A stretch of 35,841 bases of DNA from the NCBI GenBank assembly GCA_020348445.1, contig CP070751.1:1039309-1075149 (forward strand), written 5' to 3'. Under the pieces are notes generated by a model. That model made no database searches. It was not told where the DNA came from and saw nothing but the letters and a program-made list of their open reading frames with translations. A program made the position numbers and the translations under genes. Source of the DNA: Thermoplasmata archaeon. Its GTDB lineage: Archaea; Thermoplasmatota; Thermoplasmata; GCA-020350865. How positions within the stretch are numbered: the stretch's first letter is position 1; every line of letters starts with the position of its first letter. This document shows, one piece after another, positions 26,505 through 28,641 of this stretch.

Positions 26505-27680
26505 TCATCCCACTATATCGATTATATGGATTTCTGTAGTATCTTCGAAATTGAAACCAAAGTGCAGGGGATCCTCTGATATCAACGCAGGTTCCGCATC
26601 AGCAGGCAGGCCTCCCATGTACAGGCTTCCGGCAGGGTCAGCGGCGAGCCAATGATCATTTTCCTCCTCAAAAACCACGAATTTCGGATCTGTTCCGTAG
26701 AAAAGTCTGATCGCGTCTAGGATTTCATTTTTTGTGGATTCGTCCCCGATGTAAAGCGCAGGGAAGGCATGGGTCTCTGTGAGATAAGCTCTGGTGGTTC
26801 CCCCAATGGCCCCAACCATGGACGAAAATAAAATGGAGAAGTCCTCGCAGTCACCCCCACCCCTATTAAGTGTATCGCTGCAGAACGCCCAGTAATCCCT
26901 TCCCGCAGGATCAGAGATGTACGTGAGATCGTCTCTTATAAAATCAAAAATCGCCAGGACCTGATAAATATTATAGTCACCGGGGTAGGGCGCAATCAAT
27001 TTGGATACCTGTGCTTGAACCTCAGCATTTTCAAAATCTACCCTTTTTTTGAGTTTATCATAGTAGCTCTTGGTGTTGTGGATAATTTCAATATCCTCGG
27101 CATCCTCCAAGGATTCAACATGCAGGATGTTCTCCTTACCGTGGGTTGTTCGGTTATCGTACCAGCTTTCTATGCCATGCTTTTCAAGCAGCTCGTTGTC
27201 CTTTACCAATAGCGATATTATGATATTGTAGCTGTAATCCCCAGCAACATCAGGCGCTTCAACATAAACCAAACCCAACTCCTTCTCCTCATCTTTAGGA
27301 ATCAACACATTTTTTTCCTCGTAAATCCACTCCGAAGGAAAGGACCAGTTGATCTCTATCCCATATCTATAGACGAATATATCATTCTCACCTGTGTTCT
27401 CACAGCTTATTCTGATGAATCCGCCCCATCGTGCATATACATCTCCTAGGGCCCAGTTCAAATTGTAGCTGAAGCCCGGGGGAAGCTGAGATTCATTTAC
27501 ATCGGGCATATCGATTTCTTGATGCGGTGAATAGGAGGGGACCTTGGGTGCAGAAAGGTCGGTTTCGTCGAAACCTTTTCCATATTTCTCCTCTTCATCA
27601 TCGGAAAACCATGTACATCCCGATAGAATCTGAGTTATGAACAATCCCACAAACAGCACAACAAAAATCCTTTGACTCAT
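26505..27680 (-). CDS. Lipoprotein with C-terminal transglutaminase-like (Cys-His-Asp) domain
   Basis: Lipobox ILSG-C; GGGDCEDFSILFSSMVGAIGG, THAFPALYIG, WLAADPA. Confidence 0.85.
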   Translation of the reverse strand: MSQRIFVVLFVGLFITQILSGCTWFSDDEEEKYGKGFDETDLSAPKVPSYSPHQEIDMPDVNESQLPPGFSYNLNWALGDVYARWGGFIRISCENTGENDIFVYRYGIEINWSFPSEWIYEEKNVLIPKDEEKELGLVYVEAPDVAGDYSYNIIISLLVKDNELLEKHGIESWYDNRTTHGKENILHVESLEDAEDIEIIHNTKSYYDKLKKRVDFENAEVQAQVSKLIAPYPGDYNIYQVLAIFDFIRDDLTYISDPAGRDYWAFCSDTLNRGGGDCEDFSILFSSMVGAIGGTTRAYLTETHAFPALYIGDESTKNEILDAIRLFYGTDPKFVVFEEENDHWLAADPAGSLYMGGLPADAEPALISEDPLHFGFNFEDTTEIHIIDIVG

Positions 27681-27812
27681 ACGATCTTCAACAAGATTAT
27701 ATACTGGTCTTAATAAATAAAAGTTTTTATACGGATATCATGGGATATATGGAGCAAGAATAAATTTTTTGCATTCACCAAGAAATAATTATTATTTTTG
27801 GGTATTGGAGCA

Positions 27813-27826
27813 AAAAATATTTAATA
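27813..27826 (+). promoter_or_regulatory. Putative BRE/TATA for the downstream structured RNA
   Basis: A-run followed by TATTTAATA about 25-30 nt upstream of G27849. Confidence 0.4.
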
Positions 27827-27848: not shown

Positions 27849-27991
27849 GAGAGGAGTAGCGTAGTAAGACCATTCGGAATCTGGCACGCAATCTCAGGAA
27901 AGCTGTGCTCCGAAATTACAAATCTTAGATGGCAGCGCGACAGGAAGTGCAACCTGTGTCCGTTGACACCGGTGAATTGCCTGCTCCTCTC
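27849..27991 (+). ncRNA. Unassigned structured non-coding RNA, about 143 nt
   Basis: 11-bp closing helix GAGAGGAGTAG/CTGCTCCTCTC; GCAATcTCA/TGAATTGC; CAGCG/CGTTG with ACAGG/CCTGT hairpin. G-U pairs favour the + strand. GC-rich island in AT-rich DNA; T6 run at 28006. Confidence 0.6.
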
Positions 27992-28095
27992 GTCTTCCTT
28001 TCACGTTTTTTAGTTACTTCTATAAGAGTCTAGTTCCTTAGCTTAAGTAAGAATTAAATAGGAAAAAATTCGATTAACTTGTTGTGAATTCGAGC

Positions 28096-28641
28096 CTACT
28101 CTCTTAGCATCTCAATAGTTATTTTTTTAAAGGCTTCATTCACGTTCTCGCTTGTTTTGGCGCTTGAGGAATAGGCAAGTGACCTCTCGTAATTTGATGC
28201 GAAATCATTAACCTCGTCGATTCCGAATTGCGCTTGATCTTGCAAATCGGATTTGTTGGCGAGAAAAACCATGGGAATCTTCCCTGTCACATTGAAGGCG
28301 GAATTTATCCACCCCTCAAGCTCTTCAAGAGTGTCTTTATTCGTGATATCGCATACTGCAAGCAAACCCTGGGCACCATAGAAATACGCTTCCTGAAGCA
28401 GTTCCCTGAATCCCTTCTGGCCCATAATGTCCCATATCAAGAGGGTCACATTCACATCCTTTTCCTTTTTTGGATGTCGTATCGACAATTCCTTCTTTGT
28501 AACCTTTGTCCCCAAAGTTGTTATATAATCCCCTTCGAAAGCATCATATACAAATCGTTTTATTAGACTGGTTTTTCCCACGGCACCTTCACCGATAAGA
28601 CAAATCTTTAACTTATGTTCACTGGTGTTTGGCATTTTCAT
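28096..28641 (-). CDS. Rab-like small GTPase (Ras superfamily)
   Basis: G1 GEGAVGKT, G2 YITTLG, G3 WDIMGQ, G4 NKSD, G5 SSAK. No C-terminal Cys prenylation motif. RBS GAGGG. Confidence 0.93.
   Translation of the reverse strand: MKMPNTSEHKLKICLIGEGAVGKTSLIKRFVYDAFEGDYITTLGTKVTKKELSIRHPKKEKDVNVTLLIWDIMGQKGFRELLQEAYFYGAQGLLAVCDITNKDTLEELEGWINSAFNVTGKIPMVFLANKSDLQDQAQFGIDEVNDFASNYERSLAYSSSAKTSENVNEAFKKITIEMLRE

Follow-up and report, generated by a model that had tools for sequence, protein, structure and literature searches.

A candidate new family of small structured RNA with partly tRNA-like ends in uncultured Thermoplasmatota

To our knowledge, few classes of structured RNA have been recognized in archaea beyond ribosomal RNA (rRNA), transfer RNA (tRNA), RNase P RNA, signal recognition particle (SRP) RNA, and guide RNAs. 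In transfer-messenger RNA (tmRNA) and the bacterial YrlA Y RNAs, a non-tRNA domain is attached, at the position of the D and anticodon arms, to tRNA-like ends or to a tRNA-like module. We know of no archaeal RNA that is a tRNA-like analogue of the tmRNA domain or of the Y RNAs. The RNA described here has ends of a partly similar kind. It lies within a 35,841-nt stretch of the genome of a Thermoplasmata archaeon (the window; its carrier is called the host below), where it occupies positions 27849 to 27991 of the plus strand, 143 nt in all. It is very probably a genuine and conserved RNA gene that belongs to a new family. An earlier reading of the same DNA (the original prediction) had placed an RNA of about 143 nt at these coordinates, on this strand and with these ends, and had suggested that it might be a new archaeal RNA class. 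The placement is correct, and the suggestion is supported by the lack of any match to Rfam, negative ARAGORN searches, homologs with strong covariation in metagenome-assembled genomes (MAGs), and a conserved promoter.

BLAST finds the RNA in all four other genomes of the host's genus, with 84-87% identity; outside the genus, it matches the 5' two thirds of the RNA in two other families. A covariance model built from six sequences (R1) and searched in 151 genomes sampled from the class identifies exactly one copy in each of 37 genomes. These matches are clustered in some families (15/16, 4/4, and 2/2) and missing from others. A second model (R2), searched in 151 genomes sampled across the phylum, finds one copy each in 23, including members of families outside the class. 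In addition, a class-specific pattern scan of a species-level genome collection yielded 51 contigs, each with a title that describes an uncultured Thermoplasmata, Thermoplasmatota, or 'Euryarchaeota' MAG. The RNA is about 143 nt long in the host and 100-143 nt long in its relatives. This distribution is best explained by vertical inheritance, at one copy per genome, in many uncultured Thermoplasmatota. Carriage by viruses was rejected: a core-motif scan of viral contigs gave 47 matches, just one of which was scored by the model, at 21.9 bits, and that one is a GC-rich chance match. In one member of the genus (G002) the assembly breaks inside the RNA gene, leaving its parts at two contig ends (L005:25-133 and L008:1501-1544), which hints at strain variation or at an assembly problem at the locus.

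The host genome (G000) is a single contig of 5.16 Mb in which the RNA sequence is single copy, and thus the RNA is not a repeat or a miniature inverted-repeat transposable element (MITE). The gene lies within a 415-bp intergenic gap and forms a GC-rich island there, with a G+C content of 52% at 27849-27991 versus 25-31% in the rest of the gap. The predicted fold energy of the plus strand is -51.4 kcal/mol (z -3.27 relative to dinucleotide shuffles, with 0 of 200 shuffles as good). The minus strand of the same locus has a z of only -1.51, indicating that the fold is strand-specific.

An alignment of 83 distinct homologous sequences (A6), on which the structural counts given below are based, supports a model in which the RNA would fold as a three-way junction. 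The junction is formed by a terminal helix P1, by an arm consisting of P2, a UAAG loop, and P3 with P5, and by a hairpin P6. Across the whole model, 95.4% of cells are paired, compared with 38-51% in slid controls. Compensatory changes are present in 19 of the 28 model pairs, and none of 500 shuffles reaches the observed values; four of the five helices covary, the exception being P6. When pairs are ranked by mutual information, the top 9 all belong to the model, as do 11 of the top 26; those outside it resemble lineage signal. Across classes, identity of at least 90% is seen at about 40% of positions, among them all of the P6 helix and most of P5. The original prediction had named a lack of homologs or covariation as grounds for refutation; on both points the outcome is in its favour, as homologs occur in many Thermoplasmatota MAGs and show strong covariation.

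In the numbering used here, RNA position 1 is window position 27849. P1 pairs the 5' strand GAGAGGAG (27849-27856, RNA 1-8) with the 3' strand CUCCUCUC (27984-27991, RNA 136-143), and 99.7% of its cells are paired. Seven of its eight pairs show compensatory changes; pair 3 is an invariant G-C. The junction strand J1/2 is UA (U9 and A10, 27857-27858), with the U present in 82 and the A in 81 of the 83 sequences. P2 follows, its 5' strand GCGU (27859-27862, RNA 11-14) pairing with 27935-27938 (RNA 87-90). Its third pair, which is CG in 31 sequences, AU in 24, GC in 24, and unpaired in 2 of 83, fixes the register (G11-C90), and its innermost pair is usually a U-U mismatch. Between P2 and P3 is an asymmetric internal loop at 27863-27869, conserved among the 83 sequences. 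It consists of AGUAA and a bulged A27869, and it includes the near-invariant UAAG at 27865-27868, whose G27868 opens P3.

P3 is formed by G.CCAUUC (27868-27875, RNA 20 and 22-27) and 27927-27933 (RNA 79-85). Compensatory changes are seen at four of its seven pairs; one G-C pair and two C-G pairs never vary. The 3' side of the arm, 27927-27938, thus comprises the P3 strand, A27934, and the P2 strand, and it is assigned by covariation. In a family outside the class (L104-L114), P3 contains facing U-U mismatches, CCCUUUGG/CUCUUGGG, beside an A-rich strand beginning CCCAAAAGU; this arrangement, which is not seen in the host's class, could form U-A-U triples. The P5 hairpin (27884-27908) pairs GCACG at 27884-27888 with UGUGC at 27904-27908 (RNA 36-40 with 56-60), and its distal part is variable. 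With other classes included, all five P5 pairs show compensatory changes, for example GCACG/CGUGC versus GUACC/GGUAC. Immediately 3' of P5 is a conserved single strand, UCC-GAAA (27909-27915, RNA 61-67; family consensus YCC-RAAA), which belongs to no helix in the alignment. Pairing of its UCC with the GGA of P6 or with a 5' GGG was considered and dropped, as no compensating change is found, and a kink-turn (K-turn) at P5/UCC-GA was rejected because the opposite strand is without GA.

The second junction strand, J2/6 (27939-27940), consists of G91 followed by A here and by U or C in most relatives; in the alignment, G91 is near-invariant, being replaced in just four sequences. The P6 arm (27941-27983) pairs CAGG at 27941-27944 with CCUG at 27980-27983 (RNA 93-96 with 132-135) and encloses a variable loop. 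Both strands are identical in 83 of 83 sequences, so that covariation says nothing either way about this helix. Its loop is a site of expansion, ranging overall from 4 to 35 nt: it is a tetraloop of 4 nt in one family, is 7-10 nt in most, and holds an added hairpin in the host genus (g1), in family f15, and in a few other lineages. The hairpin specific to the genus, at 27953-27972, covaries within it (U.C, G-C, and U-A at one pair; G-C and A-U at another).

This model departs from the secondary structure first proposed, which was largely wrong in detail. The 11-bp pairing of the ends, 27849-27859 with 27981-27991, is present in the host as 10 Watson-Crick pairs and 1 G-U pair, but covariation extends over the outer 8 bp only. 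The inner three pairs (U9-G135, A10-U134, and G11-C133) are invariant and compete with G11-C90 in P2 and with P6. With P2 and P6 enforced, 76 of the 83 sequences fold more stably than they do with the 11-bp alternative. A helix GCAAUcUCA/UGAAUUGC had been thought to stack directly on the terminal helix. Only 58% of its cells are paired, and it has uncompensated changes even within the genus; its core, a CAA/UUG loop-loop pairing from P5 to the P6 loop, was rejected on the same figures. With the register proposed for the helix after the terminal stem, one position is unpaired in 43 of 61 sequences. The side hairpin at 27860-27887 is superseded by P3, in which CCAUUC (27870-27875) pairs with 27927-27932. 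The long hairpin at 27933-27965 fares no better: about 70 of the 83 sequences lack the stretch, and in those that have it the pairing is present in 36-49%. The real element of this region is the hairpin at 27953-27972 that is specific to the genus. Finally, the alternative pairing UGCUCC/GGAGUA shows no compensating change.

The gene appears to be transcribed from a promoter of its own. An alignment logo of 81 homologous loci reveals an archaeal promoter on the plus strand, with an A-rich transcription factor B recognition element (BRE) at 27812-27817 and a TATA box, TATTTAATA, at 27818-27826. The logo has AA at -34/-33, TTTA(A/T) at -30 to -26, an A/T-rich element near -10, and an initiator with a pyrimidine at -1 followed by G+1. 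Such an arrangement of BRE, TATA box, and initiator is the standard archaeal layout, and the same geometry is present at the SRP and RNase P RNA genes of the host genome. From its spacing, the logo assigns the start to the 5'-terminal base of the RNA, and we infer that transcription begins at G27849, where P1 opens. At 27750-27771 and again at 27806-27826 there is a TGGAGCAAnAAnA motif with an A/T-rich, TATA-like stretch after it. The second copy corresponds to the promoter of the RNA; the first is perhaps a second promoter or a regulator site.

At the other end, a 3' tail and a terminator-like pyrimidine tract (27992-28011) follow P1 and end in T6 at 28006-28011. The upstream TATA and the downstream T run that had been noted originally are therefore both present. 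Just 3' of P1, the tail reads N, then C (66 of 83 loci), then C (61 of 83), and is C/T-rich thereafter. A similar C/T-rich 3' flank is found at the host's tRNA genes.

None of the known RNA families accounts for the gene. In Rfam 15, the window has no match at the gathering thresholds, and at E<=10 there are only matches at chance level; likewise, 20 diverse homologous loci match no Rfam family. Literature searches found no description of this RNA. The original prediction held that it does not fit 5S rRNA, SRP RNA, RNase P RNA, or the riboswitches, and that its 5' end is tRNA-like with no cloverleaf to complete it. The first statement agrees with the silence of Rfam and with the presence of genuine 5S, SRP, and RNase P RNA genes elsewhere in the genome, and the second is correct.

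The resemblance to tRNA (RF00005) is the most extensive. Both RNAs have a terminal stem made of the two ends and followed by N-C-C, and the UA linker of this RNA is like U8-A9. The 4-bp P2, which starts with G-C, often has a mismatch as its last pair, and is followed by G, repeats the pattern of the D stem and G26 (tRNA positions 7-13 and 22-26). The 5' 14 nt read stem, UA, G-C-N-N, and the segment after P2 has the form N-N-G-C-G. This series, consisting of an 8-bp terminal stem, UA, a helix starting with GC, and then G, is found in nearly all 83 sequences, and both of its helices covary. The P6 hairpin adjoins P1 at its 3' strand, so that 12-13 bp are stacked as in the acceptor and T arms, and the arm of P2 and P3 has roughly the length of a D stem and an anticodon stem combined. 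However, this RNA has three arms rather than four, is without an anticodon hairpin and without T-loop or D-loop consensus, and has a 5' end produced by transcription initiation rather than by RNase P. A T-loop consensus of the 7-nt UUCRANY type was not found in the P6 loop (4-35 nt), and the position of the D loop is taken by a domain of 50-70 nt.

ARAGORN reports 0 tRNA or tmRNA genes in the window, and no Rfam tRNA match at E<=10 was obtained for the window or for a relative. A tRNA with introns, or a split or permuted tRNA, was examined by hand threading and by whole-genome ARAGORN with introns, and was rejected. The sequence left beyond the 3' side of the D-stem-like helix is too short to hold anticodon and T arms, a bulge-helix-bulge (BHB) motif is lacking, and tRNAs for all 20 amino acids are already encoded in the genome. 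Elsewhere in the genome (G000:C1:4640570-4643566, outside the window), ARAGORN finds about 20 tRNA genes head to tail within about 3 kb, many of them with atypical acceptor sequences; this cluster could be a tRNA island or a viral/mobile tRNA array.

The comparison with the tRNA-like domains of tmRNA and YrlA concerns their common plan of tRNA-like ends plus a non-tRNA branch. In contrast to them, this RNA is archaeal, lacks a T-loop, a tag frame, and G3-U70, and is much shorter than tmRNA. For tmRNA itself, ARAGORN was negative, the invariant G-C of pair 3 precludes G3-U70, and no conserved tag frame is found. A Y RNA was rejected, as no gene for Ro60/TROVE (PF05731) was found in the host genome, with positive control searches and in an assembly that is 82% complete by marker genes.

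Several features recall 5S rRNA: a stand-alone gene, a length of 100-143 nt, a three-way junction closed by both ends, very short junction strands, and UAGC after helix I. Unlike 5S rRNA, however, this RNA is without loop E or a helix IV-V arm, without the loop C pattern, and without a model score; there is no match to the 5S model RF00001 at E<=10, and the third arm is merely a 4-5 bp hairpin. Canonical 5S genes are present elsewhere in all six RNA-carrying genomes tested, scoring 99.8 bits in the host and 75-101 bits in the 5 others. The words in common with the host 5S (such as UAGCG, UAAGUCC, and UCCGAA) are few, short, and non-collinear. The host's own SRP RNA (183 bits) and RNase P RNA (185 bits) are likewise encoded elsewhere and have nothing beyond 7-mers in common with this RNA. 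A 5S paralog and an SRP Alu-like RNA were both rejected for want of collinear similarity. A reduced RNase P RNA was entertained because GGAAAG..GCUCC resembles conserved region I (CR-I), and was discarded because the word is not conserved and a normal RNase P RNA is present. UGCUCCG (27906-27912) has a complement, CGGAGCA, in the host RNase P RNA (L009), in the region of its specificity domain; this complementarity is at chance level (E 4.2) and is not kept in other lineages.

The hairpin of DUF3800-X RNA (RF02984; Weinberg et al. 2017, PMC5737381), with a 5'-side GUAAG loop and then a UCC...GGA helix, is similar over P2, the loop, and P3. This local match covers one arm only and reaches 14.5 bits against a cut-off of 38.2 (E 1.8). 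Neither a DUF3800 gene (PF12686) nor a match to RF02984 is present in the host genome, and membership in that family was rejected. Guide RNAs also fail to fit. The consensus is without the RUGAUGA/CUGA boxes of C/D guide RNAs and has no GA before P5 as a K-turn needs, while the tail is N-C-C rather than the ANA of H/ACA guide RNAs, the sole H/ACA match being 13.9 bits with E 7.4. GUCAGGA and CCUGCC, which lie close together near the 3' end, recall the B12 box of cobalamin riboswitches, a lead only. No cobalamin model matches at E<=10, however, the CC after CCUG belongs to the covarying P1, and there is no consistent downstream gene.

The genes around the RNA speak to its independence. In the window, it is flanked on one side by a minus-strand lipoprotein gene (26505-27680), whose start faces the gap, and on the other by a minus-strand small-GTPase gene (28096-28641), whose stop faces the gap. 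Of 28 lineages, 15 have their nearest downstream gene on the strand of the RNA and 13 have it on the opposite strand (convergent). Among the proteins encoded nearby are a GTPase, proteasome beta, FttA, a response regulator, aIF2-gamma, Pelota, PdxS, FtsZ, KaiC, an M29 peptidase, and surface proteins, and neighbourhoods are alike only among close relatives. A riboswitch or other cis-regulatory leader was therefore rejected, as there is no consistent co-directional downstream gene and the functions are unrelated. Neighbours that differ by lineage, together with a random downstream strand, argue for an RNA that acts in trans and not for a leader. In one family (L024:191-3141; also L020, L027, L034, and L039), the RNA gene lies between aIF2-gamma and Pelota, on the same strand, and is followed by an Endo-dU nuclease gene. 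This neighbourhood is translation-related but is not common to other lineages.

Together, these results describe a conserved, single-copy, promoter-bearing, compactly folded, trans-acting RNA. The best overall explanation, which we hold with somewhat better than even confidence, is a stand-alone gene for a small, stable, structured non-coding RNA of an undescribed family that acts in trans as a scaffold read by protein. Transcription from its own BRE/TATA promoter would start at G27849 and end in the pyrimidine/T tract after 27991. The transcript would then fold into the 8-bp end helix, a long bent arm (P2, the UAAG loop, and P3) tipped by P5 and the YCC-RAAA strand, and the short P6 hairpin, stacked against the 3' strand of P1. 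The near-invariance of about 40% of positions, including P6 and most of P5, suggests sequence-specific recognition rather than structure alone, and such reading would be provided most simply by a protein partner, as a candidate idea. One or more proteins may read the invariant junction, the invariant P6 stem, and the strongly conserved P5 stem, with the RNA as a folded scaffold in trans. The partial tRNA-like shape (a terminal stem with N-C-C, the UA linker, the D-stem-like P2 followed by G, and the 12-13 bp coaxial stack of P1 and P6) may be exploited as well, and its geometry may let the RNA use or mimic tRNA-binding surfaces. Long antisense pairing and control of a downstream gene are thought unlikely. 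This putative role, as a protein scaffold that is in part tRNA-like, is a tentative proposal.

Several observations weigh against this explanation. P6 and the junction are invariant, and the pairing of P6 rests on energy and on its loop as the site of expansion rather than on covariation. A search of five complete genomes from four further families within the class gave nothing at E<=0.1, the one match having E 0.63 and 16 bits; thus the family is not essential housekeeping. No neighbour family is common to different classes, for which reason conserved neighbours were rejected as a clue to function, and no co-occurring gene nearby points to a partner. Furthermore, the tRNA-like traits are partial, and the N-C-C could simply be part of a C/T-rich terminator, as after host tRNA genes.

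The evidence that argues for a protein-read scaffold can also be read in other ways. Since the junction nucleotides (UAG, UAAG, CC/GGC, CG, CAGG, and GCCUG) are invariant across classes, and such conservation of a junction is typical of aptamers and ribozymes, the three-way junction might itself bind a metabolite or ion in a pocket, or contain an active site, operating in trans. Mutually exclusive pairings of invariant segments are possible as well (UAG/CUG versus P2 and P6; GGC/GCC). However, even at E<=10 there is no match to a riboswitch or ribozyme family, the RNA precedes no consistent gene, and a ligand-binding or catalytic RNA is unlikely. The tRNA-like traits could also be taken at face value, the RNA being a true tRNA mimic whose N-C-C end is completed to CCA and which is bound or charged by tRNA enzymes or translation factors, as are the tRNA-like domain of tmRNA or YrlA. 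The conserved series from the terminal stem to the G after P2, the coaxial P1 and P6, the N-C-C tail in 61-66 of 83 loci, and the position between aIF2-gamma and Pelota in one family are consistent with this idea. Yet the P6 loop can be a plain tetraloop, there is no T-loop or D-loop consensus, G3-U70, tag reading frame, or anticodon hairpin, and the Rfam tRNA and tmRNA models and ARAGORN are silent. Moreover, TROVE/Ro60 was not found in the genome, host tRNA genes have similar C/T-rich flanks, and a 5' end set by transcription initiation means that RNase P is not needed. We therefore consider such a mimic quite unlikely, and a CCA-completed archaeal RNA that would be a functional analogue of the tmRNA tRNA-like domain or of the tRNA-like Y RNAs very unlikely.

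A stand-alone gene with a conserved, unpaired 7-nt segment would also suit a regulatory small RNA (sRNA) that pairs with mRNAs or rRNA, with the YCC-RAAA strand or a loop as its seed. But the conservation extends over helices and junction rather than over one seed, and the candidate seed is just 3-7 nt. Complements of three conserved segments occur genome-wide at chance frequency, with none in rRNA, and antisense targets were rejected on these grounds; the 7-nt match to RNase P RNA is not kept either. A base-pairing sRNA is decidedly improbable. Descent from a known family, such as a 5S paralog or a tRNA-derived RNA that has diverged greatly, might explain the 5S-like size range and three-way topology, the short words in common with the host 5S, and the tRNA-like 5' and 3' segments. 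Those words are not collinear, however, neither the 5S nor the tRNA model gives a match at E<=10, loop E and helix IV-V are lacking, and bona fide 5S genes are present in 6/6 of the genomes tested, which leaves such an offshoot highly improbable. Lastly, a 43-codon open reading frame (ORF) on the minus strand overlaps the region, as might be expected of a protein-coding or antisense artefact. The gene is single copy, it is conserved across classes with compensatory changes, its indels are not multiples of three, and its promoter is conserved. These same facts refute the chance inverted repeats and the MITE scar that had been named as alternatives at the outset, and artefacts of any of these kinds have next to no chance of being the explanation.

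The preferred reading, an undescribed trans-acting scaffold RNA, would probably add a previously undescribed class to the RNAs of archaea. The degree of conservation, with about 40% of positions near-invariant and four of five helices covarying, usually signals a demanding biochemical role. The gene has a promoter of the stable-RNA type and is single copy, yet, in the searches made here, it is confined to uncultured Thermoplasmatota of sediment and soil. It provides a defined target, open to synthesis, for probing, pull-downs, and structure work, and its covariance model can be used to annotate MAGs. If the tRNA-like end is indeed functional, the RNA would represent a new link between small RNAs and the translation/tRNA machinery of archaea.
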